From Leucoraja erinacea (taxonomy: Eukaryota): DNA of 64,000 bases. Made by a program: the position numbers and the translations under genes. Positions 3,001-59,887 of the stretch are shown here, one piece after another (within the stretch, counting starts at the first letter, position 1; every line of letters starts with the position of its first letter). The notes under the pieces are model-generated. The model worked only from the letters and a program-made list of their open reading frames with translations, was not told the DNA's origin and ran no database searches. The stretch covers positions 53,444,001-53,508,000 of the forward strand of contig NC_073383.1 in assembly GCF_028641065.1 (NCBI RefSeq), in the 5' to 3' direction.

Positions 3001-3631
3001 TACAAGATACATTTAATTGTCATTTAATGACAATTAAATGTATCTTGTATCTTGTATTAGAAGAGACTGGGAACAAGAACTAGCTATACAAATTTCAAAA
3101 GAGAGCTGGGATAAACACTTACTATATGTGCATAAATGCTCGATCAACGTACGACATACTCTAATTCAATTTAAAACAAAACATTGACTATATTATTCAA
3201 AAACTAAAATAAATAAACTTTTCCCCAATGTCTCACCCATTTGTGATAAATGTCAGTCACAAGAAGCTACCATAGCGCACTATTTTGTTTTTTGCATAAA
3301 AATCCAAAAATTCTGGAACAAAATATTTGAAACCTACACAAAATTAATAAAAATAAAACTTGTACCAAAAGCAGAATGGATCATTTTTGAAATATCGGAA
3401 GGTAACTCCGAACTAAACGTGTTTCAAAAGAACTTACTTAATTACGGGCTAATAATGGGAAAAAATCTTATACTCAAATTTTAGAAAAATGCTCCAATAC
3501 CAACAATAAAAATGTGGATTTCAAACATGTTCGAAACACTACACTTGGAAGAGATGAGACTCCTCCTAGCAGGCAAAGCAGACCATTTCCAAAAGACGTG
3601 GTCCGCATTTATGGAACTATTACAAGCATAA
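1..3631 (+). pseudogene. Disrupted L1 ORF2 (endonuclease/reverse transcriptase)
   Basis: ORFs 124-756 (IIGGDFN, SHIDYFL, ISDHSP), 933-1463 (SGPDGF, SYRAIALLNTDQKI), 1543-2304 (DAEKAF, RQGCSLSPLLF, YADD at 1891-1902) and 2382-3083 (GGLALP), broken by frameshifts and stops. Confidence 0.93.
2989..3054. repeat. 66-bp palindromic insertion in L1 ORF2 with TATTA duplication
   Basis: Perfect 32-bp arms at 2993-3024 and 3026-3057. TATTA at 2984-2988 and 3055-3059. Removing the insert restores the reading DGIRRDWEQEL. Confidence 0.9.
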
Positions 3632-4224: not shown

Positions 4225-4435
4225 AAAGAACTGCAGATGCTGTTTTACATACAGAAGGCACAAAGTGCCAGAGTAACTCAGTAGGTCAGACAGCGTTTCT
4301 AGAGAACATGGGTAGGCAACAATTCTGGTTGAGACCTTTCTTCAGAGACTGAAGGGGCCCAACTTGAAATGTCACCTATCAATGTTCTCCAGAGATGATG
4401 CTTGACCCGCTGAGGTACCCCAGGGCTTTATGTAT
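4225..4435. mobile_element. Penelope terminal-repeat (pLTR)-derived short element, head-to-head inverted pair
   Basis: Minus arm aagaactgcagatgctg...ctttcttcaga is joined to plus arm ctgaagggg...gaaatgtcacctatc...ctgaggtacccc. Both are similar to 49277-49369. Confidence 0.8.
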
Positions 4436-7149: not shown

Positions 7150-8622
7150 TATCTACCAAATACACTGTGAGCCTGAGTCATCCCAACAGGCCTTTCAGGT
7201 GAGCCAGGGGNNNNNNNNNNNNNNNNNNNNNNNNNNNNNNNNNNNNNNNNNNNNNNNNNNNNNNNNNNNNNNNNNNNNNNNNNNNNNNNNNNNNNNNNNN
7301 NNNNNNNNNNNNNNNNNNNNNNNNNNNNNNNNNNNNNNNNNNNNNNNNNNNNNNNNNNNNNNNNNNNNNNNNNNNNNNNNNNNCAAAAACTCCATTCAGG
7401 CTGATGNNNNNNNNNNNNNNNNNNNNNNNNNNNNNNNNNNNNNNNNNNNNNNNNNNNNNNNNNNNNNNNNNNNNNNNNNNNNNNNNNNNNNNNNNNNNNN
7501 NNNNNNNNNNNNNNNNNNNNNNNNNNNNNNNNNNNNNNNNNNNNNNNNNNNNNNNNNNNNNNNNNNNNNNNNNNNNNNNNNNNNNNNNNNNNNNNNNNNN
7601 NNNNNNNNNNNNNNNNNNNNNNNNNNNNNNNNNNNNNNNNNNNNNNNNNNNNNNNNNNNNNNNNNNNNNNNNNNNNNNNNNNNNNNNNNNNNNNNNNNNN
7701 NNNNNNCATCTACCGAGACTCACTGGCCATGAGTCACTGAACAGGACTCCATCCATGTGCATTCAGGTGAGCCAGGGGTTCATGTGCATTTCTCCAATCC
7801 TTGTCTAGTGCATTCAGTGCTGCCAATATGGCCTCCTTTAGTGTGATCAAGCATAGACTAGGTGACCACTTCACTGAACTCTTGAGCTCCATCCACCAAG
7901 GCATGCCTGATCTCCCAGTTGCTAATCATTTTAACTGCCTTTCCCTTTCCCATACCAACTGTTCTGTCCTTGGCCTCCTTCATTGCCAGAATGAGGCCAC
8001 ACATGAACTGGAGGAACAGCACCTCATATTCCACGTGGGATGCTTACAACCCAACAACATGAATATTTAATTATCTAATTTCAATTAATAATCCCCCTAT
8101 CCTCCACCCTTTCCCATCCCCTGTCACCCCCCATCCCTGGTGCAAACCATTTTCTCCCACCATCTCCCACCTCGCCATTCACCCTGCTCCTTTCCTCTCC
8201 TTCATACATTCATCTCTGATCCCCTCGTCCCCAATATCTTTTTTATCTCCTCTCTTTTCCCTACACACTAAGCCTTACACCCGTATTCCTCCATTGGCTT
8301 TACATTTCAGTCCTCTTCTCTCCTCATCTGACACCCATTTGTCTCCTTTTCACCTCTAGCCTTTGCTGCTACTTACTCTACCCATGTGCCGTTCAAACCC
8401 CCTCACCTGCATCCACCTGTCACATGCCAAGCTTTGTCATACCTCCCATTCCAGCATTCTCCCTACTACTACTGAAGAAGTCACAACTCAAAATGTTGTC
8501 AATACATTGCCTCTGTAGATGGTGCCTGACATACTGAGTTGAATCTGAATCTGAATCTGGAGTTCCTCCAGCACTTGGTTTTTTGGCTCAAGGTTCCAGT
8601 GTCTGCAATTTCTTTTGTTTCC
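7150..8622 (+). mobile_element. Degenerate Penelope-like element (GIY-YIG remnant + pLTR) spanning two N gaps
   Basis: ORF 7801-8070 contains KHRLGDHFTELL...PVANHFN...SVLGLLHCQNEATHELEEQHLIF, homologous to 48666-49136. A pyrimidine-rich tract and a decayed ctgaagaag tail follow at about 8472. Confidence 0.85.
7211..7706. other. Assembly gaps (7211-7383, 7407-7706)
   Basis: Runs of N. Confidence 1.
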
Positions 8623-11396: not shown

Positions 11397-11544
11397 NNNN
11401 NNNNNNNNNNNNNNNNNNNNNNNNNNNNNNNNNNNNNNNNNNNNNNNNNNNNNNNNNNNNNNNNNNNNNNNNNNNNNNNNNNNNNNNNNNNNNNNNNNNN
11501 NNNNNNNNNNNNNNNNNNNNNNNNNNNNNNNNNNNNNNNNNNNN
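11397..11544. other. Assembly gap
   Basis: Run of N. Confidence 1.
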
Positions 11545-12037: not shown

Positions 12038-12835
12038 ATATGGGAAAGTATAGATAGTTACACAAAATCGCCGTATCTAATGGGTGGCCTGCTGACCCAT
12101 TCGGCTCATGTGCGGTACAAATCCACATCTCCTCCTTTCACCGGTGAAGTGACCGGGGAGGGAACCGGGGAAATGACCGGGAACCGCCGGGTGGAGGTGG
12201 TGAAATAGGCGAGCTAGGCGCTGAACGCTGTGGGGAGGCCGCAGGGGACACAGTCTCTGGTAGTGGAACAGCTGGCCCGGTAGTGGGAGGGTATACAAAA
12301 CGCGAGACCTCTGGATGCGGAGTCGCAGGAAGGAGATGTTGACGGTTGCGTCTGTAAATGGCCCCGACCGCGCTAACTAGGTAGGAGAACGGTTCTTTGT
12401 CAGGGGCTGTGGATGTGACCCAGACGGCCATAGCCCTTGTTGGTCTGGAGGTGAACAACCTGCCCACTGGAGAGAGGTTTAAGTGACTTACTGGATTTGT
12501 CGAAAAAACATTTTTGTGCATCGGGCTTGAATTGTAGTTGTTTCTGGACCGCGGGCGAAGACCGAACCTGTGGCTGCACAAGCTGCTGGGGTAGCACGGG
12601 TTTGGCGAGATATCAGTCGTTGGGCTGGGAAACCCAGTATGGGATTCCTGGCAATGTTCCTTAAATTGAGCAGTCCAGGTAGACTACAAGGGGCAGGAGG
12701 GAGAAAGCAAGGACTACCTGAAATTGGAGGTCAATGTTCATACCGCTGGGGTGTAAACTACGCAAGCAAAATATGAGGTGCTTCTCCTCCAATTTGCAGT
12801 GGGACTCACTCTGGCCATGCAGGAGGCACAGGACA

Positions 12836-12996
12836 ATAGACTATAGGTGCAGCAGTAGGCCATTCGGCCCTTCAAGCCAGCACCACCACTCAATGTGATC
12901 ATGGCTGATCATCCCCAATCAGTAACCCGTTCCTGCCTTCTCCCCATATCCCCTGACTCCGCTATTTTTAAGAGCTCTCTCTTGAAAGCATCTCTT
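12836..12996 (-). mobile_element. CR1 3'-tail fragment inserted in Penelope
   Basis: gtaggccattcggcccttc...tgccttctccccatatcc tail, with GACA duplication at 12832-12835 and 12997-13000. Confidence 0.8.
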
Positions 12997-14039
12997 GACA
13001 GAAAGGTCGAATTCCAAATGGGAGGGGGAGTTGAAGTGCTGAGACACTGGGAGATCAGGTTGGTTATTGCGAACTGAGCGGAGGTGTTGGGTGAAGCGAT
13101 CTCCAAGCCTGCGCTTGGTCTCACCGATGTAGAGCAGCTGACACCTGGAACAACGGATGCAATAGATGAGGTTAGAGGAGGTGCAAGTGAACCTCTGCCT
13201 TACCTGGAAAGACTGCTTGGGTCCTTGGATGAAGTTGAGGGGGGAGGTAAAGCGACAAGTGTAGCATTTCCTGCAGTTGCAAGGGAAAGTACCAGGGGAG
13301 GGGGTGGTTTTGGTGGGAAGGGACAAATTGACCAGGGAGTTACAGAGGGAACAGTCTCAGTGGAAATCTGAAAAAGATGTAGATGGGAAGATGTGGCCAG
13401 TGGTGGGATCTTGTTGGAGGTAGCGAAAATGTCGGAAGATTATCTGTTGTATATGACGACAGGTAGGGTGGAAGGTGAGGATAAGGGGGACTGTCCTTGT
13501 TGTGAGTGGGGGGATGGGGAGTGAGAGCGGAGCTACGGGATATTGAGGAGACCCTGGTGAGAGCCTTATCTATATCACAGGATCACCGCAAAGAAAGTAT
13601 CCATTTTATGCAGAATGTACACCCGATTGAGTGATGCCGAATTTACATTTCCTTTATTCGACTTGCAATATTTAATCATAATGATTTAAACTGAATTGTC
13701 TGCTCATAAAACAGCTGAGTTATCTTCTTTAAATAGCCTGTGATACAAAGAGTGGAACATTTGCTTCCCACACAGATGGTTGTGTCCTGGGGCTCTCTGT
13801 CACAAATTTCTCTACCCACAGCTTAAGAGTCTATTTTAGCTGCATGCAGTTAGTCACCTAGAAGGACTATATCACAATATCCAATTTCTGCACAATTTAG
13901 ATTATGATTGATCTGTCCTGAAAATATTTGTGTTCCACTTACACATGATCAAACTTAATTTTCTTTTGGTAGTGGCAAACTGTCATTGCTCTGTCTTTTG
14001 TGAAGCATGCATACATTTGTGCCTTGCAATGTTACATTG

Positions 14040-17167: not shown

Positions 17168-20027
17168 CCATATAACCATATAACAATTACAGCACGGAAA
17201 CAGGCCATCTCGGCCCTACAAGTCCATGCCGAACAATTTTTTTTTTTTTTTTTTCCCCCTTAGTCCCACCTACCTGCACTCGTACCATAACCCTCCATTC
17301 CCTTCTCATCCATATGCCTATCCAATTTATTTTTAAATGATACCAATGAACCTGCCTCCACCACTTCCACTGGGAGCTCATTCCACACCGCCACCACTCT
17401 CTGCGTAAAGAAGTTCCCCCTCATATTACCCCTAAACTTCTGTCTCTTAATTCTGAAGTCATGTCCTCTTGTTTGAATCTTCCCTATTCTCAAAGGGAAA
17501 AGCTTGTCCACATCAACTCTGTCTATCCCTCTCATCATTTTAAAGACCTCTATCAGGTCCCCCCTTAACCTTCTGCGCTCCAGAGAATAAAGACCCAACT
17601 TATTCAACCTATCTCTGTAACTTAGTTGTTGAAACCCAGGAAACATTCTAGTAAATCTCCTCTGTACTCTCTCTATTTTGTTGACATCCTTCCTATAATT
17701 TGGCGACCAAAATTGTACACCATACTCCAGATTTGGTCTCACCAATGCCTTGTACAATTTTAACATTACATCCCAGCTTCTATACTCAATGCTCTGATTT
17801 ATAAAGGCTAGCATACCAAAAGCTTTCTTTACCACCCTATCTATATGAGATTCCACCTTCAAGGAACTATGCACGGTTATACCCAGATCCCTCTGTTCAA
17901 CTGTATTCTTCAATTCCCTACCATTTACCATGTACGTCCTATTTTGATTTGTCCTGCCAAGGTGTAGCACCTCACATTTATCAGCATTAAACTCCATCTG
18001 CCATCTTTCAGCCCATTTTTCCAAATGGCCTAAATCACTCTGTAGACTTTGGAAATCCTCTTCATTATCCACAACACCCCCTATCTTGGTATCATCTGCA
18101 TACTTACTAATCCAATTTACCACACCTTCATCCAGATCATTGATGTACATGACAAACAACAAAGGACCCAACACAGATCCCTGAGGCACCCCACTAGTCA
18201 CCTGCCTCCAACCCGATAAACAGCCATCCACCATTACCCTCTGGCTTCTCCCATTCAGCCACTGTTGAATCCATCTTGCTATTCCTGCATTTATACCCAA
18301 CAGTTGAACCTTCTTAACCAACCTTCCATGAGGAACCTTGTCAAAGGCCTTACTAAAGTCCATATAGACAACATCCACTGCTTTACCCTCGTCAATTTCC
18401 CTAGTAACCTCTTCAAAAAATTCAAGAAGATTAGTCAAACATGACCTTCCAGGCACAAATCCATGTTGACTGTTCCTAATCAGACCTGTTTATCTAGATG
18501 CTTATATATATTGTCTCTAAGTATCTTTTCCATTAATTTGCCCACCACTGAAGTCAAACTAACAGGTCTATAATTGCTAGGTTTACTCTTAGAACCCTTT
18601 TTTAAACAATGGAACAACATGCGCAGTACGCCAATCCTCGGGGACTATTCCCGTTTCTAATGACATTTGAAATATTTCTGTCATAGCCCCGGCTATTTCT
18701 ACACTAACGTCCCTCAATGTCTTAGGGAATATCCTGTCAGGACCTGGAGACTTATCCACTTTTATATTTTTCAAAAGTGTCAGTACTTCTTTTACTTCGA
18801 ACCTCATAGTATCCATAGCTACTCTACTAGTTTCCCTTACCTCACATAATTCAATATCCTTCTCCTTGGTGAATACCGAAGAAAAAAAATTGTTCAATAT
18901 CTCCCCCATCTCTTTTGGCTCTGCAGATAGCTGTCCACTCTGTCTCTCCAATGGACCAATTTTATCCCTCCTTATCCTTTTGCTATTAATATAGCTGTAG
19001 AAACCCTTTGGATTGACTTTCACCTTACTTGCCAAAGCAACCTCATATCTTCTTTTAGCTTTTCTAATTTCTTTCTTAAGATTCTTTTTACATTCCTTAT
19101 ACTCCTCAAGCACCTCATTTACTTCATGCTGCCTATAATTATTGTAGATCTCCCTCTTTTTCCGAACAAGATGTCCAATTTCCCTTGAAAACCAGGGCTC
19201 TTTCCAATTTTACTGTTTCCTTTCAACCGAACAGGAACATAAAGATTCTGTACTCTTAAAATTTCCCCTTTAAATGTCCTCCATTTCTCTTCTACATCTT
19301 TTCCATAAAGCAAAATGTCCCAGTTCACTCCTTTTAAATCATCTCGCATCGCATCAAAGTTAGCCTTTCTCCAATCAAAAATCTCAACCCTAGGTCCAGT
19401 TCTGACCCTCTCCATAGTTATATTGAAACTAATGGTATTGTGATCACTGGACCCGAAGTGCTCCCCAACGCATACCTCCGCCACCTGTCCAGTCTCATTT
19501 CCTAACAGGAGGTCCAGCACTGCCCCTCCTCTAGTAGGTACCTCTATGTATTGCTGCAAAAAACTATCCTGCACACATTTTACAAACTCCAACCCATCCA
19601 GCCCATTTACAGAATGTGTTTCCCAGTCTATGTGTGGAAAGTTGAAATCTCCCACAATCACTACCTTGTGCTTACTACTAATCTCTGCTATCTCCTTACA
19701 TATTTGCTCTTCCAATTCTCGTTCCCCGTTTGGCGGTCTATAATACACCCCTATAAGTGTTGCTACACCTTTCCCACTTCTCAATTCCACCCAAATAGCC
19801 TCCCTAGATGAGCCCTCCAATCTATCCTGCCAAAGCACTGCTGTAATATCTTCCCTGACTAGCAATGCAACACCTCCACCTCTTGCCCCTCCAATTCTAT
19901 CACACCTGAAGCAACGAAATCCTGGAATATTTAGTTTCCAATCACAGCCCTCCTGCAACCACGTTTCACTGATCGCCACAACATCATACTTCCAGGTGTC
20001 TATCCAGACTCTAAGCTCTTGTAAGCT
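17168..20027 (-). mobile_element. Young CR1 LINE, 5'-truncated, near-complete ORF2
   Basis: (TTATATGG)n 3' tail. AAGTAA duplication at 17162-17167 and 20028-20033. Endonuclease and RT ORFs present. Confidence 0.96.
17260..20027 (-). pseudogene. CR1 ORF2 (APE endonuclease + RT), frameshifted into three ORFs
   Basis: 19119-20105 (ISETWL, VGDFNFP, SSDHN), 18589-19113 (KSPGPD, VPEDW) and 17260-18456 (DFSKAFDKV, GVPQGSVLGP, YADD). Confidence 0.95.
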
Positions 20028-20144
20028 AAGTAATTGTGTCTCCCCCCCAAGTTTTGATCGCGATTTCACAAAGTCACAATCAACCAAGCAATTAACGATG
20101 AACAATATCCGTTACCACCTTGCAAGATCTGTACGCAGATCTAA

Positions 20145-20461: not shown

Positions 20462-21753
20462 TAAGCATATGAGGTCAAGCACTACTACTGAGTGTACCAT
20501 AGATTAGATCAATTTTCGCATGCCATGGTTTACCGGAAGAACTTGTTTCTGATAACGGACTTCAGTTTCATTCAGAACGGTTCAAAGTTCATGCAACAAA
20601 ATGGTGTAAAACACACACTTGTTCCCCCATACCATCCAGCCTCCAATGGGGTGGCGGAAAGGTCTGTTCGAGTTGTCAAAGATGCTCTCAAAAAATAGGT
20701 TTTGCAGGGTAGTTCAAAGCTCAGCATGAAACATCATTGCTAGTTTCTTGCTGAAGTACAGAACCACACAACAACAGGTTACTCACCTGTAGAATTGTTG
20801 ATGAAGAGAAGGCTAAGAATACGCCTAAGTCTAGTTCAACCCAACTTGGCCTTGAGAGTTGAGCAAAAACAGCTAAGTCAAAAATGCCATTTTGACTCTC
20901 ACAAAAAGGAAAGGTACTTCAAGCCAGATGAGCAGGTTCATGTTCTCAGTCCTCCCAACAAGTCCAGTCGAGACAAATGGGATGTTGGGAGAATAGCGGA
21001 AGTGTGCGAACAAAAAGATATTTAGTTGAAGTTAGAGATAGGATTAAAAGTGTTCATGTTGATCATGTTGATCAAATGATTCCAAAATCTGAGCATGAAG
21101 TCTTAATCCCTGAGTTTTTATCTGAAAGTGAGTTGGAAGAAACCATTGTGATTGAAACACAAAGTTCAGTTAGTACAGACAAAGAAACAGATTCCTCTGG
21201 TCAAGTCTGAAGAAAGGTTTCGGCCCAAAACGTTACCTATTTCCTTCGCTCCATAGATGCTGCTGCACCCGCTGAGTTTCTCCAGCATTTTTGTGTACCT
21301 TCCTTTGGTCAAAGTCAGGGTACTAAAACAAGCCAAACAAGTCTTCAGTTGAGTCAACACCTAAACCTGTTACACCTGTTACTGTTAGGCAATCAGGCAG
21401 GATCCGTAAACCAGTAGTCAAGCTAGGTTTGTAAGTTAAATACATCACTGCACAAGTAAAACAAAAATATATAGATATGTAAATTAAATATATTATGTTA
21501 TAATTTAGAATTTCATGAATACTGGTTTAAATTGATTATCACAACAACAAAATTGTAACTGAGTACTTAGATTTAATACTTAAAAAAAGGAGAGCGGCGT
21601 AATGTATTCATACATATTCATGTATATGTTAATGAATTGGTGTTCAATATAAGATGGGAATGTTGGGCAATAAATCTCTCTCTCGTGATCCAGGCAACCA
21701 GCGTGTGAGTTGTTATTTATTCTGCCGTCCGGAAAATAACAGATCCCATCACA
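20462..21753 (+). mobile_element. Gypsy LTR retrotransposon 3' fragment: integrase remnant, PPT and short 3' LTR
   Basis: GLPEELVSDNG and HTLVPPYHPASNGVAERSV integrase motifs. PPT at 21582-21597. LTR at about 21598-21753 (cgtaatg...catcaca) with AATAAA at about 21669. Confidence 0.88.
21205..21299 (+). mobile_element. 95-bp Penelope pLTR/hammerhead-only insertion
   Basis: Near-identical to 49275-49369. Flanked by a 13-bp duplication, ttcct(c/t)tggtcaa. Confidence 0.9.
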
Positions 21754-21988
21754 GGACCTTAATGCTGAATCTTTTCCTATTGTCTACACAACCAGGCCAA
21801 AACAATTTGATTTTTTGATTTTGTCCTTTATCGCATATGATTTGTTTCCCTTTCTTCAGACTCTTCTCACCTGTCACCATGCCATCTTTCATTTCTTCCT
21901 TCATGGATACTCAAGTCTCCCAAATCCCCAATCTCGCTCCATTGAGCTTGAATAGAAATGTTTGGCACTGAATGATGCCATTTGGCCC

Positions 21989-23091
21989 ATTAGCAAGATG
22001 GATTCAACAGTGGCTGAATGGGAGAAGCCAGAGGGTAATGGTGGATGGCTGTTTGTCGGGTTGGAGGCAGGTGACTAGTGGGGTGCCTCAGGGATCTGTG
22101 TTGGGTCCTTTGTTGTTTGTCATGTACATCAATGATCTTGATGAAGGGGTGGTAAATTGGATTAGTAAGTATGCAGATGATACCAAGATAGGGGGTGTTG
22201 TGGATAATGAAGAGGATTTCCAAAGTCTACAGAGTGATTTAGGCCATTTGGAAAAATGGGCTGAAAGACGGCAGATGAAGTTTAATGCTGATAAATGTGA
22301 GGTGCTACACCTTAGCAGGACAAATCAAAATAGGACATACATGGTAAATGGTAGGGAATTGAAGAATACAGTTGAACAGAGGGATCTGAGAATAACCGTG
22401 CATAGTTCCTTGAAGGTGGAATCTCATATAGATAGGGTGGTAAAGAAAGCTTTTGGTATGCTAGCCTTTATAAATCAGAGCATTGAGTATAGAAGCTGGG
22501 ATGTAATGTTAAAATTGTACAAGGCATTGGTGAGACCAAAGCTGGAGTATGGTGTACAATTTTGGTCGCCCAATTATAGGAAGGATGTCAACAAAATAGA
22601 GAGAGTACAGAGGAGATTTACTACAATGTTGCCTGGGTTTCAACAACTAAGTTACAGAGATAGGTTGAAGAAGTTAGGTCTTTATTCTCTGGAGTGCAGA
22701 ATGTTAAGGGGGGGACTTGATAGAGGTCTTTAAAATGATGAGAGGGATAGACAGAGTTGATGTGGACAAGCTTTTCCTTTGAGAATAGGGAAGATTCAAA
22801 CAAGAGGACATGACTTCAGAATTAAGGGACAGAAGTTTAGGGGTAACATGAGGGGGAACTTCTTTACTCAGAGAGTGGTAGCGGTGTGGAATGAGCTTCC
22901 AGTGGAAGTGGTGTCGGCAGGTTCATTGGTATCATTTAAAAATAAATTGGATAGGCATATGGATGAGAAGGGAATGGAGGGTTATGGTACGAGTGCAGGC
23001 AGGTGGGACTAAGGGAAAAAAGTTGTTCGGCATGGACTTGTAGGGCCGAGATGGCCTGTTTCCGTGCTGTAATTGTTATATGGTTATATGG
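21989..23091 (+). mobile_element. Young CR1 LINE 3' fragment (same subfamily as 17168-20027)
   Basis: ORFs 21972-22733 and 22779-23012 are nearly identical to 17260-18456. TTATATGG tail. Possible TGGCCC duplication. Confidence 0.95.
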
Positions 23092-23544: not shown

Positions 23545-23865
23545 CCTGATGCAAGACCTCAGTCCAAAACATGACCTATATCATATGCCTCCACAGTTGC
23601 AACTCGACCCACTGAGTTTGTTCCAGATTCCCGCATTGTGGACTCTTTTATGTTGGTAGGAACTGTAGATGCTTGTCTAAACCAAAGATAGACACAAAAA
23701 GCTGGAGTAACACAGGGGGTCAGACAGCATTGCTGGAGTAGAGGAAAAGGTAATGTTTCGGATCGAGACTCGTCTGTCTCAACCTGAAATGGCACCTATT
23801 CTTTTTCTCCAGAGATGCTGTCTGACCAGCTGAGTTATTCCAGCTTTTTGTGTCTATCTTGTGGT
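23545..23865. mobile_element. Penelope pLTR-derived copies (old plus copy at 23545-23630; inverted pair at 23658-23865)
   Basis: aggaactgtagatgc...gtttcggatcgagac is joined to tctcaacctgaaatggc...ctgagttattccagc. Confidence 0.8.
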
Positions 23866-37852: not shown

Positions 37853-39244
37853 AACCATATAACCATATAACAATTACAGCACGGAAACAGGCCATCTCGG
37901 CCCTTCTAGTCCGTGCCAAACACGTATTCTCCCCTAGTCCTATATACCTGCACTCAGACCATAGCCCTCCATTCGTTTCCAGTCCATATAACTATCCAAT
38001 TTATTTTTAAATAATAAAATCGAACCTGCCTCCACCACCTTCACTGGAAGCTCATTCCATACAGCTACAGCTCTGAGTAAAGAAGTTGCCCCGCATGTTA
38101 CCCCTAAACGTCTGTCCCTTAATTCACAAGTCATGTCCTCTTGTTTGAATCTTCCCAACTCTCAGTGGGAAAAGCTTATCCACGTCAACTGTGTCTATCC
38201 CTCTCATCATTTTAAAGACCTCTATCAAGTCCCCCCTTAAACTTCTGCGCTCCAAAGAATAAAGCCCTAACTTGTTCAACCTTTCTCTGTAACTTAGTTG
38301 CTGAAACCCAGGCAACATTCTAGTAAATCTCCTCTGTACTCTCTCTATTTTGTTGACATCCTTCCTATAATTAGGCGACCAAAATTGTATACCATACTCC
38401 AGAATTGGCCTCACCAATGCCTTGTACAATTTTAACATTACATCCCAACTTCTATACTCAATGCTCTGATTTATAAAGGCCAGCGCACCAAAAGCTTTCT
38501 TTACCACCCTATCTACATGAGATTCCACCTTCAGGGAACTGTGCACAGTTAGTCCTAGATCCCTCTGTTCAACTGCATTCCTCAATTCACTACCAATTAC
38601 CATGAACGTCCTATTTTGATTTGTCCTACCAAGATGTAGCACCTCACACTTATCTGCATTAAATTCCATCTGCCATCTTTCAGCCCACTCTTCCAACTGG
38701 CATAAATCTCTCTGTAGACTTTGAAAATCTACTTCATTATCCACAACACCACTTATCTTAGTATCATCTGCATACTTACTAATCCAATTTACCACACCAT
38801 CATCCAAATCATTGATGTACATGACAAACAACAGTGGACCCAACACAGATCCCTGTGGCACCCCACTAGTCACTGGCCTCCAACCTGACAAACAGCCATC
38901 CACCATTACTCTCTGGCATCTCCCATTCAGCCACTGTTGAATCCATCTTGCTACTCCACCATTAATACCCAACAATTGAACCTTCTTAACCAACCTTCCA
39001 TGAGGAACCTTGCCAAAGGCCTTACTGAAGTCCACATATACAACATCTACTGCTTTACCCTCATCAATTTCCCGAGTAACCTCTTCAAAAAATTCAAGAA
39101 GATTAGTCAAACATGACCTTCCAGGCACAAATCCATGTTGACTGTTCCTAATCAGACCCTGTTTATCCAGGTGCTTATATATATTATCTCTAAGTATCGT
39201 TACCATTAATTTGCCCACCACTGACGTCAAACTAACAGGACTAT
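37853..39244 (-). mobile_element. CR1 LINE 3' part (sister subfamily of 17168-20027)
   Basis: ORF 38124-39230 has SQHGFVPGRSCLTNL, GVPQGSVLGP and YADD. Same TTATATGG tail. Confidence 0.95.
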
Positions 39245-40029
39245 CTTAATAACATAATAATATCTTAATAATATAATATGATTAGGGTCATCCATCAGCA
39301 TTTAAACAAACTTGCAATGTGAATGACCCACCCCTGCTACAAATACATCTTAAGAAATTAATACATGCTTATGTTTGCCAACTACATTGAGGACCAAGGG
39401 TCCTGGTAATTCCAATCCTCTCCCCGATTTGTATTTATTGTATTATCTGATCTGATTTAACATGCAAAACAAGGCTTTTCACTGTACCTTGGAGCACGTG
39501 ACAATAATAAAACTAAACCTAAACACTGCAAATGACATAGTGAATATCATTAATTAAATATATTTTGAATTTCAATTTAACTGCAGTGATTTTGCTTTGG
39601 AAGTGTTTAATTGGAAGCAAGATGGTCTATTAATGCCTCAGCACTGTTCCACCATTCCATCTGATCTGTCGCTTGGCTCCATTTACCCACATCACTCAAC
39701 ACTTTGCTTAGCAGAAATCTTTCAATCTCAGTTTTAAAATGAATAATTGACCTGGCATCAATTTCTAGTTGTGGAAGTGAAATTCACATTTAATAGCTGT
39801 GGTGTGCTTTGTCTGATCTTAAGGATTTGAAGGGAGTCATAAAAAATGTTACCTTTTACATTTCAACGCAGCATCTATCAGTCATATAAACATAGTGGTT
39901 AAATGGCCTCTATGGTAGTGTCATGTGAACCAGTAATCACATGTTTTCTGACTGCATTAGCATTTTGTGAGGTGAAAACACTTTTGTGCACTAAATAATG
40001 TTTTTACTCAGGAATTCCTTTGTGACATC

Positions 40030-41849: not shown

Positions 41850-42025
41850 GTGGAACTGCAGATGCTGGTTCACACCGAAGATAGACACAAAATGTTGGAG
41901 TAACTCAGTGGGACAGGCAGCATGTCTGGATAGAAGGACTGAGTGACTTTTCGGGTTGACGCCCTTCTTCAGACCCTTCTCGACCCGAAACATCGTCCAT
42001 TCCTTCTATACAAAGGTACTGCCTG
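41850..42025. mobile_element. Penelope pLTR-derived inverted pair with 17-bp TSD
   Basis: tcactgattagtttagt at 41833-41849 and 42026-42042. The arms join at cttcttcagac/ccttctcgacccgaaac. Confidence 0.88.
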
Positions 42026-42034
42026 TCACTGATT

Positions 42035-42250
42035 AGTTTAGTCTAGTTGAGAGATCCAGCACGGAAACAGGCCTTTAGGTACAATTTAACAAAAGCCAAT
42101 TAATCTATAAATCTGACTTTGGAGTATGGGAGGAAACCAGAGCAACCAGAGAAAACGCACGCAATCACAGGGAGAACGTACAAACTCCTTACAGAGAGCA
42201 CCCGTAATCACGATTGAACCTGGGTTTCTGGCGTTGTAAGGCAGCCACTT
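42035..42250 (-). mobile_element. tRNA-derived V-SINE/HE1-like SINE (partial)
   Basis: gggagaacgtacaaactcc V-domain, B-box-like ggttcaatc on the minus strand, CR1-type tail. Confidence 0.75.
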
Positions 42251-46419: not shown

Positions 46420-47253
46420 TGTCAAGTCAAGAGAGTTTATTGTCATGTGTCCCAGATAGGACAATGAAATTATTGCTTGCTGCAGCACAACAGAGTATTG
46501 TAAGCAAAAATACAGAACAATTCAGTGTGTCTATCGCATAGACCATATATATACACATAAATAAACATATAAAGTGCAATAGGCTGTTACAGTTCAGAGT
46601 TTGTCTGATGGCAAGTTTAATAGCCTGATGGCTGTGGGGAAGAAGCTGATCCTGAACCTTGATGTACCTGATTTTAGGCTCCTGTACCTACTACCTGATG
46701 GCAGCAGGGAGATGAGTGTGTGGCCAGGATGGTGTGGGTCCTTGATGATGTTGGCAGCCTTTTTGAGGCAGCGACTGCGATAGATCCTTTTGATGGTGGG
46801 GAGGTCAGAGCCGATGATGGACTGGGCATTGGTCGCAACTTTCTGCATTCTTTTCCCCTCCTGGACGCTCGTTGCCGAACCAAGCCACAATGCAACCAGT
46901 CAGCATGCTCTCTACTGTGCACCTGTAGAAGTTCGAGAGAGTCCTTTTTGACATACCGACTCTCTGTAATCTTCTCAGGATGTAGAGGCGCTGATGTGCT
47001 TTCTTTATGATTGCATCAGTGTGCTGGGACCAGGAAAGGTCTTCGGAAATATGCACGCCCAGGAATTTGAAGTTCTTGACCCTTTCCACCATTGTCCCAT
47101 TGACATAAACGGGATTCTGGGTCCCTATCCTACCCCTTCCAAAGTCCATAATCAGTTCCTTGGTTTTGCTGGTGTTAAGAGCCAGGTTATTGTGCTGGCA
47201 CCATTTGGTCAATCGGTTGGTCTCACTTCTATAATCTGACTCGTCACCATCAG
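46420..47253 (-). mobile_element. Rex1/Babar-clade LINE, 5'-truncated
   Basis: WCQHNNLALNTSKTKELIMDF, FKFLGVHISEDLSW, KKAHQRLY, FYRCTVES and DPHHPGH...LLPSG. 3' aataaa followed by a (CTTGA)n tail. Confidence 0.9.
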
Positions 47254-47702
47254 ATCTGTGATGACTCGAAATCATCATGCTCATGGACCAGAGAGAATTC
47301 AGTTTAAGAGATAAATGTGTGGCTATCTAATTGAATTTTTATTAAGAGACTTAGAAGTTAGGGGAAGGAATTTTCTTCATGATATATAGTTTACAGTTAC
47401 CAGAAAGTGAGGCCTTCAGGAGCAGCAGCATGAGTTCTTGATGTAATTGCCACAAAAAGAGATTACTCTTTCTGCATGATGTCACTCAGGCTTGTTAACT
47501 GAGTGAAACTATTCAGAAAAGAGTATTTCTTGAAAAGGAATCAAGCTTCCACAGGTTATACTTCGAAACTTCATAACACTTGCTTCAAATTCTAGTTCCT
47601 TACCGAGAGCATACGAATAACAAAGCACGCCATCAAGCTGACTGAGTGTAATTGGAGCCTCTGTGTACAGGTATTGCAGACCTGGGAGACTACACTGATG
47701 TT

Positions 47703-47819: not shown

Positions 47820-48665
47820 ACACTGATGTTGGTTAGCTTGTTCTGCAAATGAATTTGGATGAGTTTATGGAAACATGTCTGATATAGTTAGTCCATGCTT
47901 CGGAGCTATACAAGGGGGTAAGATTACTGATGCCCATTATTGTGCTGGGTCTGAGGCCTCCAAAATCGCATATTTGCAAGTGAAGGGCACCACCTCCCAT
48001 ATTTTCCACCCATCTATCCTATCGTACACCATCTGTAACCCTGCATCAGTGCCCTTTTATTGTCCCACATTGTTCCCATAGTTACTTTGAAGAGTGAAGT
48101 GGAAGCTAGTTATCCTCAACCACGAGGGAACACCTGAGAGGAAGGCATAATTATCTGGTGCGTATAAAACAAAAAGTGTTTCAGTAAATGACAGAAATAC
48201 GTCTCTGGCAGAGTGAAAGGTTAGTGAAGGGAGTTACTGGCATAAACAAGCACAATGTAAAGCTTTTCCTGAGATCAAAGCTGAGATGGCAGATTGTCTG
48301 TGTGCTGTTAGTCAGATCAGTTCAGAAACAAAGCATCAAAGAAGAATCAATGTCAGAAGACTCATCAACAGAAACAGATACAACTTGTATTTACAGTGTA
48401 AAGTGTTCCAAGGAAATGTTAACAAATAGAATTTGGCAATCATAAAAGATTTATGTGCATCACTCCCAATCTTGGCTGCCCTAAGCTGCCTTGCATGCCA
48501 ATCCCAGTGAAAGCTTTAGGTCTGTGTGTTGTGAGGTAGCTGATGTGTGACCTTCAACTCTGGCAAAGTTAGGGCTGTGGGTTCATAGCTTGGGACCTAA
48601 TGTGGTCATAAACAAGTTTCACACAACGTGACCCCACCACTCGCCACATCTTCCCATCTCCCCCT

Positions 48666-49136
48666 ATGTCTGCCTTCCGCAAAGACCTCTCCCTCCGCAA
48701 CTCCCTTGTCAATTCTTCCCTTCCCTCCCGTACCACCCCCTCCCCGGGCACTTTCCATTGCAACCACAAGAAATGCAACACCTGTCCCTTCACCTCCCCC
48801 CTCAACTCCATTCAAGGACCCAAGCAGTCGTTCCAGGTGCAACAAAGGTTCACCTGTATCTCCTCCAACCTCATCTACTGCATCCGCTGCTCTAGATGTC
48901 AGCTGATTTACATCGGGGAGACTAAGCGAAGGTTGGGCGATCGTTTCGCCGAACACCTCCGCTCAGTCCGCAATAACCTACCTGAACTCCCGGTGGCTCA
49001 ACACTTCAACTCCCCCTCCCATTCCCAATCCGACCTCTCTGTCCTGGGTCTCCTCCATTGCCAGAGTGAGCAACACCGGAAATTGGAGGAACAGCACCTC
49101 ATATTCCGCCTGGGTTGTTTGCGTCCGGTGGCATGA
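48666..49136 (+). CDS. Penelope GIY-YIG endonuclease domain with Cys-rich linker (5'-truncated ORF fragment)
   Basis: GTFHCNHKKCNTC...NLIYCIRCSRCQLIYIGETKRRLGDRFAEH...RKLEEQHLI. The RT part is absent, so it is unlikely to be functional. Confidence 0.75.
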   Translation: MSAFRKDLSLRNSLVNSSLPSRTTPSPGTFHCNHKKCNTCPFTSPLNSIQGPKQSFQVQQRFTCISSNLIYCIRCSRCQLIYIGETKRRLGDRFAEHLRSVRNNLPELPVAQHFNSPSHSQSDLSVLGLLHCQSEQHRKLEEQHLIFRLGCLRPVA

Positions 49137-49269
49137 ACGTTGAATTCTCCCAGTTTTGCTAGCCCTTGCTGTCTCCTCCCCTTCCTTAACCCTCGAGCTG
49201 TCTCCTCCCATCCCCTCGCACTCGAGCTCCTCCTCCTCCCTTTTTCCTTCCATCTCCCCCCCCACCCCC

Positions 49270-49312
49270 CATCAGCCTGAAGAAGGGTTTCGGCCCGAAA
49301 CGTCGCCTATTT
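49270..49312 (+). ncRNA. Minimal type-I hammerhead ribozyme motif (predicted)
   Basis: CUGAAGA at 49277-49283, extra A, stem II GGGU-UUCG-GCCC, GAAA at 49297-49300, palindromic ACGU, GUC triplet ending at 49304. Helix I is short (GC/GC). Confidence 0.7.
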
Positions 49313-49719
49313 CCTTCGCTCCATAGATGCTGCTGCATCCGCTGAGTTTCTCCAGCATTTTTGTGTACCTTCACGCAATACTTCATGTGCTCTCAATGAA
49401 TGCACTCAAGACTCTCCATGCCAACCTAATGATCCTTGTCTACCTTGCAGCGGGATAACTATATGTTGGTATTGCTATTATAAATTGTTTTACATGTGCT
49501 ATGGGAGAATGGTCTTTCCCTCTAGCAGACAAACAGGGCAACTCTTCTGTAGTTTTTGTAATTGGATGCTAGGTTTCTCTAGCAGAATGGCATCATGATT
49601 GGTTTAATGAGAATGATCAGAGGTTACAGGAGTTAGCTAATAACAACCACAAAGTCTTCTCATTGACAGCATCCAAACTTTTCGTTGCCACCAGTTGTCA
49701 CAAAAATTCACAGAGACAT

Positions 49720-50108
49720 ACAAGAAAAGACAAAAGGTGTGAGACAAAAGGATTGAAGAGTTGTGTATTGTGAAGCAAGAGGAAGGAATGTAGGGGGAGG
49801 GGAAGGGGAGAAATAGGTGCAAATCTAGGTGGAACACAGGTTAGGTCAGGGAGAAAAGTGGGTAGGGGAGAAAATAGGGTGTGAGAGAGAGAGGGGAGGA
49901 GGCTATTAGAGGTTACAAAAAATGTCAATATTCAATGTTCATACCATTAGGTTCATACCAAGTGGAATATGAGGTGCACTTCAACCAATTTGCATGGGGA
50001 CTCACTTTGGCAATGGAGAAGGCCCAGAACAGAAAGGCCAATATGTGAATGGGAAGAAGGGTTAAACTGGCTAGCAACAGAGAAAACTAGTATGTGTTGG
50101 CGGACCAA
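49720..50108 (-). mobile_element. Degenerate Penelope GIY-YIG remnant
   Basis: aatatgaggtgc...ctttggcaatggagaaggcccagaacagaaagg is the reverse complement of SVLGLLHCQS...HLIF. Confidence 0.75.
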
Positions 50109-50236: not shown

Positions 50237-52118
50237 TTTTTTATTTTTTTTTTTTTTATTTTTTTTATTTTATTAGAAGTTAATACAGTACAAAACAGTA
50301 CAGTGGAACCTAATTTTAGGTGCCAATTATGTCATACCGTAATCCATTCTATGTACAACCTCTAGTTTTATGTTTTGAGAAGGAAGTAAGCAAGACAAGA
50401 AAAAGAAAACAATAGAAAGGGGAAAAAGAGGAAAAATAGATGGTAGAGAATAGAAAAACGTGAAGTGTGTATATAAAAAAAAGAAAAAGTGGAAAGTAGA
50501 AATAGGAGAGAAGGCCCCTTAAAAGAGAAATTTTCAAATCTTTATTCGGAGATGTAGATCTATCCACGTCATGAACTGAAATCAGCAATCTTTACGGTAC
50601 CGCTGCATCACATGATTCCAAAAAGTCGATGAAAGGAGACCAACTCCTTAAGAATTGGTCATATTTATCTATTAGTCGGAGTCTCATTTCTTCAAGGCGT
50701 GCTATGCCCATCATATTCCTAATCCACATTTTAACAGTTGGTATGGCTGTATTTTTCCAAAATGTAAGTATCAATTTCTTTCCAATTATTAACCCATAAT
50801 TAAAAAAAACGTTTTGGTCTTTATTTAAATTGATATCTTCTACTATTATTCCAAATATAATCCATTCCGTTTTAGGTTCTATTCTTGACTTGAAAAGCTT
50901 TGTAAATATACCTAATATATCGCTCCAAAATGTATTCAACTTTGTACATCCTACAAATGAATGTGTTATATTAGCGTTTTGAAAAAAACATTCATCGCAT
51001 CTGGGAGAGACGTTTGGATAAAATTTATTCAACCTCGTTTTTGAATAATATAGTCTATGTAATAATTTGAATTGATTTTTATTATGTTTTGCATTCATAG
51101 AACAATTATGTGTGTTCATCAGATACTTTTCCCATCTATCCTTCGAGATCTTTATCATTAGCTCATGTTCCCAATCTTCTCTTAGTGCTTCTGTTGAGGG
51201 TAATTCTCTATTTAATATATTATTATAAAAGTATGATATTAGTTTTTGTGAATCAGCCTTAATATTCATTGCTTCTTCTAGAAATATAGTTTGAAATCTA
51301 TGTGTATATTTCTTCATAAAGTCACATATCTGTATATATTTAAAATATTGATTATCCTTCAGTTTAAATTTTAATATTAAATGTTGAAATGATAACAGTT
51401 TGCCCAATTCATACATATTCCCTACTTTCCTAATCCCCAGTCTATCCCATTGTTGATATGTTTTGTCGATGAGAGATGGTTTGAATGCGGGGTTGTTCAA
51501 TAGTGGGGTTAGTACTGATAGATTAGTTAATTTCAAGGATACTTTTATTTGTTTCCAAATTCTTATTGTATTGTGAATAATTGGATTCTTCTTATATATT
51601 ATACTATTCAATTTTATCGGTGAGAGCAAGATCATTCCTATATCTTGCGGATAGCACTCCTCTTTCTCCATTCTTATCCACTCCAACTGCTTAGTGGAAC
51701 TATCCAACCAGTACATTATGTTCTTAATATGCACTGCCCAGTAGTAATACATGAGGTTAGGTAATGATAAACCCCCAACTTCTTTAGGTTTACACAAATG
51801 CTTTCGTTGAGTTCTGTGTGCTCTGTAATCCCATATAAAATTAGTGATAGTAGAATCTAGTTTTTTGAAAAAGTATTTTGGAATATATATTGGGATCGCT
51901 TGAAACAAATATATTAATTGTGGTAAGAAAGTCATTTTTAGAGCGTTAATTATACCTATCAGTGAGAGTGGGAGCGTTTTCCAAAATTTAATCATATCAT
52001 TCAGTTTATTTAATAGTGGCATAAAATTGGCACTAAATAATGATTTGTGTCTTCTCGTAATTTGAATACCCAGATACTTGAATTTTTCTGTTGCAATTTT
52101 GATGGGGAATTTATATAT
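50237..52118 (-). mobile_element. L1-clade LINE, 5'-truncated (paralogous to 1-4004)
   Basis: Poly(A)-type tail at about 50236-50272. Probable TSD att(c/t)aagttct at 50226-50236 and 52119-52129. Confidence 0.93.
50592..52022 (-). CDS. L1 ORF2 C-terminal fragment (476 aa open; post-RT region + Cys/His motif)
   Basis: GGLSLPNL.YYYWA, FKLLHRLY, PRCDEC...HSF..C and WSPF. Collinear with 2140-3631. Lacks the RT core. Confidence 0.75.
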   Translation of the reverse strand: MPLLNKLNDMIKFWKTLPLSLIGIINALKMTFLPQLIYLFQAIPIYIPKYFFKKLDSTITNFIWDYRAHRTQRKHLCKPKEVGGLSLPNLMYYYWAVHIKNIMYWLDSSTKQLEWIRMEKEECYPQDIGMILLSPIKLNSIIYKKNPIIHNTIRIWKQIKVSLKLTNLSVLTPLLNNPAFKPSLIDKTYQQWDRLGIRKVGNMYELGKLLSFQHLILKFKLKDNQYFKYIQICDFMKKYTHRFQTIFLEEAMNIKADSQKLISYFYNNILNRELPSTEALREDWEHELMIKISKDRWEKYLMNTHNCSMNAKHNKNQFKLLHRLYYSKTRLNKFYPNVSPRCDECFFQNANITHSFVGCTKLNTFWSDILGIFTKLFKSRIEPKTEWIIFGIIVEDINLNKDQNVFFNYGLIIGKKLILTFWKNTAIPTVKMWIRNMMGIARLEEMRLRLIDKYDQFLRSWSPFIDFLESCDAAVP

Positions 52119-52721
52119 ATTTAAGTTCTGGTTAACATTATTTCCTGTTTGGACATGAATAATGGAAACTACATTCAGGGATTCCAGAGAACATGGGTAA
52201 TTTAACTGGCTGCCAGGTGACTGGATGATCTATACCCAGAGAGGAAAACAGAGTTCACCCTGGAATCTGGTTAGGTCAAGATTCTTCTATCATTAGGAAG
52301 TGAATTAGAACTTACAAATCATTGAGCTTTTTTGTCTTACAGAGAGCAATGAATATTTAGTTTTTTAAAGAAAGTAAATAGGCAAAAAAAGCTGGAAATA
52401 CAAATATACGACCATGTGCGGCATAGGAGCAGAGTAAATGTTGAATGAAGCTTTAACTCTGTCTGCAACAAATGCTGCTTCACCTGCTTTCATTTCCAAT
52501 ATTTCTATTTGGTCTAAGACTTTCAAAGGATTAAAAAAAAATTATTGAACTTAGGGAAACAGGAACGGTAGACAGTTTTGAAACAAAATGTATCTATTGT
52601 CACACTCCATCTTGTGATAAAGAAAAGTGCACCTATTGCCACCCTTCATCTTGTGATATGGAAACATGTTCAATCCAGAACAATGTGTGTCAGTGGTACA
52701 CTTGCACTCACCATTGTCTTA

Positions 52722-56161: not shown

Positions 56162-57120
56162 GATGTAGAAACAAGGAACTGCATGTGGTGACCTTTAGAT
56201 AAAGCACAAAGTGCTGGAGCAACTCAGCGGGTCAGGTAGCACCTTTGGAGAACATGGATAAGTGCCTTTTCAGGCCGGGACTCCTATTCTGAATGTGCAG
56301 GAGTGGGTGGGGTGGGGTGGGAAATCCCTCACCTATATCTTGCTGGGCTTTGTCCTACCGCTCCTCACTTCCAGCTTTCTTTCCCGCTACACCACAATTA
56401 GGATGAAGAAGGACCCAACTCAAAACGTCACCAAGCCATGTTCTCCAGAGATGCTGCCAGACCTGCTCAGTTACTCCAGCATTTTGTATAGCAATGTAGA
56501 AACAACAAACAGCAAATGCTGGTTTACAAAAAAGGTCATGAAGTGCTGGAGTAACTCAAAGAAGGCAGAATCGGGAACACAGGATGTAGTAGATAAGGTT
56601 AGGGGAGGTGCACGTGAACCTCGGTCTCACTGCAAAGGCATGCTGCGGTCCCTTGATGGATGTGAGGGAGGAGGTTTAGGGACAGGTGTCACACTTCCCA
56701 TGGTTGCAGGGGAAAGTATCTGGGGGGGGGGGGGGGGGAAGGTTTGGATATTTATTAAATAAATATAAGGAGTTGTGTGAAGGGAGTGGTCAGAAAGGGG
56801 TGGGATGGGATGATGTAACTAGATGATGTAGGATCACAGTGGAGGTGGCAGAAATGTCAGAGAATGGTGTGTTAGATGTGATGGTTAATTGGGAGACTGG
56901 TGAAGACCAGGGAATGCTCATTCTCCACGTGGAGCAGGGAGGTGGAAGAGGGGGGGGTGGGGTCATGGGGGTCATGAGAGCAGAAGTGCGGGACACAGAG
57001 GGGATGTGGGTGAGGGATCAATCTATGACGACAGGGGGGGAATCTATGTTTCCTAAAGAAAGAGGGCATGTCAGATATCTTAGTATGGAAAGCCTAAACT
57101 TGGGAGCAGATGCGGAGAAG
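56162..57120. mobile_element. Rearranged Penelope element: inverted pLTR copies plus minus-strand ORF remnant
   Basis: pLTR minus at 56162-56292, plus at about 56330-56490, minus at 56493-56558. This is followed by GIY-YIG/linker/RT remnant homologous to 13140-13575. Confidence 0.8.
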
Positions 57121-59195: not shown

Positions 59196-59420
59196 AATAA
59201 CACAAAGCGCCGGAGTAATTCATTGTTTAAGAAGGAACTGCAGATGCTGGAAAATTGAAGGTAGACAAAAATGCTGGAGAAACTCAGAGGGTGAGGCAGC
59301 ATCTATGGAGCGAAGGAAATAGGCAACATTTCGGGTCGAGACCTTTCTTCAGATCAAAGGAGTAATTCATTGGGTCAGATGCATGGATAGGTGATGTTTG
59401 GGTTGGGACCCTTCTTCAGA
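59196..59420 (-). mobile_element. Two nested Penelope pLTR-derived copies
   Basis: Inner copy 59226-59358 is flanked by ggagtaattcattg (59212-59225, 59359-59372) inside an older copy. Confidence 0.88.
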
Positions 59421-59887
59421 CAAGCTTCTAGGTTTCTTTTTCTAGCATTATTCTTATCCCATTGAAATAACTTAGGTGACAAAAAAAATCTTCTGTACAT
59501 TGAAATACGATTTTTTTTTCAATAAATGACAAAATGATAGTTGATTTTATTAGACTTCCTATAGGTTGCTCTATTCCCAGGCACAAACTTTTATGTCCAT
59601 TTTTTTCACATTTTAGTTACCCGGTGATTGATCATGACAGGCTTTCTTTTGAAGATAATGCTTTTCAACTAAAGCTTTCCTTAAGGGCGCTGCTGGTTAA
59701 GACTGCATGGGTCCTTTGTGATTGGTCCTAAGGTTATTCCTATTTGATTATTGTTTCTGTCATCAATTTCTCTCGAAGTTGACAAACAATTCCTTTTCTG
59801 ACTTTGTCATGCAGGCAAGCTGAACATTTCCAGTGCTAACTACACCCGCTCAAATTGGTTACCATTTTGATTAACTTAGTCTAACAT

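Follow-up and report, generated by a model that had tools for sequence, protein, structure and literature searches.

The sequence at 49270..49312 of the window (i.e., the whole 64,000-nucleotide stretch of DNA analyzed) is very probably a complete minimal type I hammerhead in the 3′ terminal repeat of a truncated, frameshifted copy of a Penelope-like element (PLE), at a locus that is likely inert and in a family whose cleavage is likely paired and protein-aided. The motif likely survives since the copy is fairly recent. Cleavage of this focal copy in vivo is unlikely, because there is no intact partner in the 64 kb. The features are located in Table 1.

Table 1. Coordinates of the hammerhead, its host element and related features in the window.
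Feature	Positions	Strand	Basis or remark
5′-truncated PLE copy (linker, GIY-YIG endonuclease, 3′ pseudo-LTR; no RT, no tail)	48624..49372	+	Read depth, homology, tblastn
ORF remnant: CX4CX2C linker (48759-48785), GIY-YIG domain with CCHH residues	48624..49162	+	Pfam, alignment, frames, tblastn
Pyrimidine-rich upstream part of the pseudo-LTR, ending TCAG (49272-49275)	49163..49275	+	Sequence
Helix I, 5′ strand (G2.2, C2.1)	49275..49276	+	Sequence; C2.1 is the minority letter in the family
Core C3-A9 (49277-49283) plus extra A before helix II (49284)	49277..49284	+	Sequence, descriptor, PMC4209133 Fig. S3 consensus
Helix II, 4 bp, UUCG loop, G10.1:C11.1 intact	49285..49296	+	Sequence, copy comparison
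Rival 6-bp hairpin or long imperfect palindrome burying G12-A15.1 (predicted)	49287..49301	+	Folding
G12-A15.1 (GAAA, 49297-49300), palindrome ACGU (49300-49303), C17 (49304)	49297..49304	+	Sequence, descriptor
Helix I, 3′ strand (G1.1, C1.2)	49305..49306	+	Sequence
Remainder of the ~100-bp terminal unit	49307..49372	+	Loose ends at 49369-49372
Closest window copy, 94% over 99 nt	21205..21302	+	Solo unit from 2 nt before C3; 13-nt target duplication, 1 mismatch
Solo unit with tail inside an older copy (C3 at 59419)	59225..59358	-	Exact 14-nt target duplication; G10.1 lost

When the sequence is read directly, the minimal hammerhead is complete on the plus strand where the initial annotation had placed it. 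All core nucleotides and the extra A before stem II that it reported are present, as both the reading and a full descriptor match indicate, and stem III is the loopless palindrome ACGU it described, a known mark of the published consensus. The extra A and the loopless palindrome are defining consensus features, and the motif is a letter-for-letter match to the published class. Its reading of stem II as GGGT-TTCG-GCCC is also correct, yet the 5-bp stem with a 2-nt loop proposed for other copies cannot fold and is better read as 4 bp with a 4-nt loop. Here helix II has three G-C pairs and one U-G pair, and opens with G49285:C49296. The letters CG at 49301-02 and UC at 49303-04 follow, and the predicted cut lies between 49304 and 49305.

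The full descriptor (i.e., core, helix II of at least 3 bp, palindromic 15.2-16.2, UH, and helix I of at least 2 bp) yielded a single match in the 64-kb window, at the 49277 site, and none in 300 dinucleotide shuffles. The bare core pattern is at chance level, with 8 window matches against 7.19 expected. The 49277 motif is real and beyond chance. Helix I is just 2 bp long, and no descriptor match is left once 3 bp are demanded. The motif has neither the self-contained helix III nor the Rfam model match of a canonical type I hammerhead: no Rfam model matched within the window at gathering score, and hammerhead families are absent among the six weak window matches at E<=10. A match to HOTTIP_3 (17.8 bits, against a gathering score of 50) was rejected as an artefact of the pyrimidine tract. 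None of the 18 rows of a tandem-repeat scan covers the motif, which indicates there is no retrozyme-type tandem array, and pattern scans for further copies found no loci in metagenome contigs, viral contigs or prokaryote genomes.

The host element begins at ~48624 according to depth and homology (48621-48624 by tblastn of relatives) and ends at 49372. A 9-nt imperfect repeat is present at both junctions (48618 and 49370), of a length within the chance range. The GIY-YIG domain matches Pfam PF01541 with E=1.2e-4. In the alignment, the linker cysteines C50, C55 and C58 fit CX2-5CxxC before the endonuclease, and C93, C96, H115 and H131 (CCHH) are invariant or nearly so. Judged by these residues, the CX4CX2C linker and the CCHH set mark a PLE of the Neptune/Nematis type. 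The reading frame is shifted near 49124-49129, where RNA reads carry an extra base, and meets a premature TGA at 49134-49136. Relatives read through this TGA in tblastn, and the other frame gives the expected ending to the TAG at 49160-49162. Hence, the distance of about 140 nt from the GIY-YIG stop given in the initial annotation holds for the premature stop (141 nt), while the family stop lies 115 nt upstream of the hammerhead. The pseudo-LTR part between stop and motif has a pyrimidine fraction of 0.93, versus 0.80 at the 99th percentile.

Of 146 candidates searched, 118 proved to be relatives, as did 23 of 370 longer ones. An RT domain (PF00078) is listed for four of these 23 longer relatives; the focal copy has none, and tblastn found no RT of the same family near it. 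The best named matches are from skates, rays and sharks, including one of 96% over half of the query to a Leucoraja erinacea model. Together with the GIY-YIG ORF, these cartilaginous-fish relatives confirm that the motif sits in the Penelope terminal repeat of a chondrichthyan element. The family shows 5′ truncation, inverted 5′ copies and a 30-40-nt tail, and the focal copy itself is truncated and tailless. Many other copies run on into a tail of ~30 nt, a motif flagged in 9 of 20 window copies. Downstream of the cut, a hairpin AUGCUG...CAGCAU is possible at 49327-49357 in all subfamilies and may be an RT-recognition structure; where copies have a tail, it gives the same strand an alternative partner of greater length.

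Other repeats were observed in the window. Older GIY-YIG fragments of the same Penelope-like group lie at 12700-13491 (-), 7749-8085 (+), 56559-56734 (-) and 49958-50105 (-), and the copy at 12.7-13.5 kb is split by another repeat. LINE fragments with RT and endonuclease domains by Pfam lie at 885-3083 (+), 17260-20111 (-), 21972-22733 (+), 38124-39245 (-), 46805-47326 (-) and 50592-52229 (-). The last is a 545-aa open frame that has no Pfam match and is similar to the C-terminal portion of the element at 2262-3083. The assembly has three gaps here (621 N), at 7211-7383, 7407-7706 and 11397-11544, and these create spurious ORFs near 7.1-7.8 kb.

The copy had been called young. It is relatively recent, with a CpG observed/expected ratio of 0.66 (window, 0.36; an older copy, 0.35), yet it is already truncated and frameshifted. 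At least 12 of its differences (among 40 listed) are found in ~85% or more of the X21 reads, which corresponds to ~2% of the element as a lower bound. For the family, four runs were mapped at 85% likeness: two RNA runs (~6% and ~5% sampled) and two contig sets. The flanks of the focal locus are covered in one of the four (X15), and the RNA data thus speak for the family and not for the focal copy. Family RNA is abundant in both RNA runs. The transcript strand ratio is uninformative: over the ORF it is ~2:1 in X21 and 1:1 in X24, and the terminal unit likewise gives 1:1. At position 49276, the family letter is T in 86-95% across the four runs (884/983 reads in X21, 1156/1341 in X24, and 94% and 95% of contig depth in X17 and X15). 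With its G-C/C-G pairs, the focal helix I is stronger than that of the family, which usually closes with U-G or U-A; this counts against inertness. Position 17 is U in 63-72% of family reads, as the NUH rule allows.

Profile searches returned 21 and 25 window matches, and none in the reversed control. After two distant or duplicate matches and fragments were dropped, 22 distinct copies were curated. Core, 4-bp helix II and palindrome are all kept in one of these 22, i.e., the copy at 49277. Copies 21207 and 44754 have lost G10.1 and G12, copy 59352 has lost G10.1, copy 41972 has lost the palindrome, and copy 11045 carries C3U. G12, which acts as the base in hammerhead chemistry while the G8 2′-OH acts as the acid (PMC6155905), is kept in 9 of 18 copies. 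At 59225-59428 (-), the insertion of a younger unit in an older repeat copy has left two hammerheads, both damaged, on the same strand at a distance of 67 nt.

The initial annotation had held that other copies vary compatibly with the fold. The copies it cited (11045, 21207, 41972, 44754 and 59352) are the damaged ones just described. In the alignment of 18 copies, a few rows of which are poorly aligned at the 5′ end, 69.0% of cells pair, and 346 of 500 shuffles are as high; the covariation score is 0.231, and 163 of 500 shuffles are as high. Against slid controls the score is higher, as expected of a structure taken from one of the aligned rows. Covariation was therefore rejected as support, and the significant stem I/II signal on which the annotation proposed to judge the motif is lacking in the 18 window copies. 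The helix II change relative to other subfamilies is one-sided (U-A to U-G). Regarding the first helix I pair, T:A is indeed found at 21206/21235, 41972 and 44754 where the focal copy has C:G; as a sign of covariation, however, the C:G pair rests on C49276, the minority letter. Such shuffle-level values show neutral decay of dead copies and not an absence of selection on master elements.

The core was also expected to be better conserved than the rest of the pseudo-LTR. In 19 other copies (the focal copy and two hammerhead-less copies were left out), majority agreement at non-CpG sites is 164/181 in the core versus 692/808 downstream (p=0.09), slightly higher in the core, and versus 604/682 once seven subfamily-diagnostic sites are removed (p=0.50). 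Contrary to that expectation, decay in the core is no different from that in the remainder of the repeat. Intact CpGs are found in 4 of 18 copies for C11.1-G12, 3 of 16 for the palindrome, and 5 of 18 for one downstream site. After insertion, the motif would decay neutrally and mainly at its CpGs.

This bears on whether the host has domesticated the focal copy as a regulatory ribozyme, which we consider extremely improbable. It is the sole intact motif among the 22 window copies, and its closing pair is Watson-Crick where the family has T; both would fit domestication. Yet the copy is CpG-rich and close to the family, so its intactness needs no selection, helix III is still missing, and its flanks are covered in only one of the four runs.

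Folding predictions indicate the obstacle to the active structure. In 49268-49314, helix II has a predicted pairing probability of 0.02, because 49287-49292 is modeled to pair with 49296-49301. The predicted probability of a hammerhead-ready monomer is 0.01-0.06 for short constructs and 6e-5 for 49250-49369. Predicted energies are -11.1 kcal/mol for the active double hammerhead, -16.0 to -18.3 kcal/mol for two free monomers, and -28.0 to -28.8 kcal/mol for an inactive duplex through the longer palindrome, i.e., ~17 kcal/mol more stable than the active dimer. In these models, the longer imperfect palindrome wins in both monomer and dimer. Nearest-neighbor models omit the tertiary core and Mg2+ and so understate the active fold; the values bound the claim without settling it.

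It had been proposed that the RNA cleaves itself after C49304 when two copies pair through ACGU. The cut position stands, and so does dimerization as the sole route to helix III, given the published class: a single copy could not form helix III, and two motifs would pair via ACGU and swap helix I strands, yielding two active sites that would each cut after nucleotide 17 (here 49304). Simple unaided pairing is unsupported, because the longer palindrome is predicted to win and the window holds no intact partner, and because published metazoan minimal hammerheads show poor cleavage as naked dimers (PMC4209133) or need the element's protein (PMC11167929). Cervera & De la Pena 2014 saw no monomer cleavage and low dimer cleavage, and dimers of a Schistosoma minimal hammerhead cleaved weakly (PMC4209133). 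No pile-up of RNA molecule ends was found in the reads, a weak test; fragmented libraries rarely keep RNA ends. Although every core letter is present, dimers of the class have been reported to cleave (many such variants, according to the title of Lunse et al. 2017, as cited in PMC6765202 and PMC7761336), and the abundance of family RNA means partners exist in trans, unaided self-cleavage of the focal copy in vivo is very unlikely.

With the active fold of the naked RNA predicted to be unstable, cleavage in vivo would likely need the element's protein as a chaperone. The likeliest setting would be two repeats of a full-length or tandem transcript with that protein bound. For the family motif, both the dimer chemistry and the protein help are argued by analogy with published relatives, and the focal copy is taken to be inert.

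A sharp boundary lies just upstream of the hammerhead. Depth rises ~24- to 33-fold (X17, X21) from 49233-49265 to 49299-49331, and loose ends before 49277 number 878, 2301, 464 and 469 in the four runs, a top class in all of them. Their flanks are heterogeneous and A-rich, ending in GT or AGT. The cut site at 49305 is absent from the six loose-end classes listed per run. Inspected by eye, the starts of 20 window copies tell the same: six reach the pyrimidine tract, ~11 fall within ~6 nt before C3 (one uncertain), three are inside the hammerhead, and none is at the cut site. Of 16 copies tested, 6 lie between target duplications of 13-19 nt (the null has its 95th percentile at 11 and its 99th at 14). 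In two of them the duplication sets the copy start at 2 and 6 nt before C3, and in the others it encloses an extra, often inverted piece. The 5′ boundary is real. Most short copies start directly 5′ of the hammerhead, with none starting at the cut site. Uncleaved RNA was therefore likely the template, and the short units were likely copied from RNA still holding the whole hammerhead. Cleavage would thus likely not be an insertion step. Head-to-head inverted pairs of terminal units were also found at 4257-4434, 23691-23854, 41884-42059 and 56203-56490, as in known inverted 5′ PLE copies, and both arms of the pair 4345/4348 start 2-3 nt before C3.

Copies that retain an uncleaved motif would also be expected if, in this lineage, the motif has lost cleavage and persists at the transcript head to act as a promoter or to bind protein. 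The 2-bp helix I, the A-C at its third position in 9 of 22 copies, and the rival hairpin predicted in the subfamily point the same way, and Naiad elements thrive without canonical hammerheads (PMC8557442). Against this, the same core letters are kept in PLE repeats from cnidarians to reptiles (PMC4209133), and core mutants with compensatory rescue of the anole element indicate real hammerhead chemistry (PMC11167929). Hence, we regard a non-cleaving signal as very unlikely and retain paired, protein-aided cleavage for the family.

The boundary suggests a tentative and rather doubtful reading of its function: transcription may start at an initiator-like TCAGT (A49274), so that the ribozyme would form the first ~35 nt of a capped RNA, and cleavage dependent on both dimer and protein would remove a capped 31-nt leader as a copy-number-sensing off switch. 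Tail-primed reverse transcription of uncleaved RNA would then scatter the ~100-130-bp units. If so, cleavage would be such a switch and not a tool for freeing element RNA. The initiator consensus resembles TCAG(T). The letters at the boundary may fit an initiator or, after the pyrimidine tract, a splice acceptor. The same TCAG/TTAG ending of the tract is present in copies 4555, 56403 and 23546, and the focal copy has lost the TCAGT, with C at 49276 where the family has T. In a post hoc inspection by eye, UCAGU or UCAUU occurs in the ~15 nt before C3 in 10 of 56 published rows (PMC4209133), against ~3 expected by a hand estimate.

Alternatively, the boundary may be an end defined by splicing or a point where reverse transcriptase stops. 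Transcription of Drosophila Penelope starts 46 nt upstream of an intron of 75 nt (PMC2377424), and this intron ends at helix I (PMC4209133). Internal splicing that would join the stop-codon region to 49276 has no RNA-supported joint among the 15 listed for the present family. No literature linking the 5′ boundary to the hammerhead, or describing this motif in cartilaginous fish, was found by a search outside which most subscription journals lay. The role of PLE hammerheads is still described as open (PMC8557442, PMC7761336), and the abundance of this family, together with its sharp 5′ edge upstream of the cut, makes it possible to distinguish the processing and off-switch models.

The motif is a cartilaginous-fish addition to a class that was described in 2014 and numbers thousands of copies per genome. 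Cervera & De la Pena 2014 (PMC4209133) defined this minimal hammerhead, gave the extra nucleotide, the G10.1:C11.1 pair and the palindrome as distinguishing features, and counted ~4,000 in coelacanth and ~9,000 in Xenopus. The skate motif shares with it the extra nucleotide before helix II, G10.1:C11.1, the loopless palindromic helix III, the NUH site, the position 3′ of a GIY-YIG ORF, and the occurrence mostly as solitary truncated copies and opposite-orientation pairs. By eye, 7 of the 56 rows of its Fig. S3 carry the same core letters as 49277. It differs in that none of these 56 rows is from cartilaginous fish, and in the rival hairpin predicted in the skate subfamily. Whereas helix I usually has 3-5 bp in that class, here it has 2 bp, at the low end, with a short helix II of 4 bp; rows with a 2-bp helix I in that alignment are from Culex, three Drosophila species and Oikopleura.

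Regarding the element, the CX2-5CxxC linker defines the Neptune/Nematis clades of EN+ PLEs (Craig et al. 2021, PMC8557442). The skate family shares with them the C-terminal GIY-YIG with CCHH, the Cys linker, 5′ truncation, inverted 5′ copies and the tail. The focal copy, having no RT, is placed as Neptune/Nematis type and not in one clade.

Another close system is the Poseidon element PAc of Anolis carolinensis (Frangieh et al. 2024, PMC11167929): its hammerhead cleaves only with protein, its uncleaved RNA is the insertion substrate, priming takes place internally at the tail, and RNA-seq shows no ends at the cut. The skate family resembles PAc in the minimal hammerhead within the pseudo-LTR, the 3′ tail extension, the RNA-seq data with no ends at the cut and, probably, the use of uncleaved RNA as insertion template. 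It differs in the CX2-5CxxC linker, lacking in Penelope/Poseidon, and protein-assisted cleavage is shown in that work for PAc alone. Finally, non-LTR retrozymes, found in the sole chondrichthyan sampled (bioRxiv 10.64898/2026.07.22.740005), carry a type I hammerhead related to that of PLE pseudo-LTRs, yet they are arranged in tandem, whereas the skate units are dispersed.
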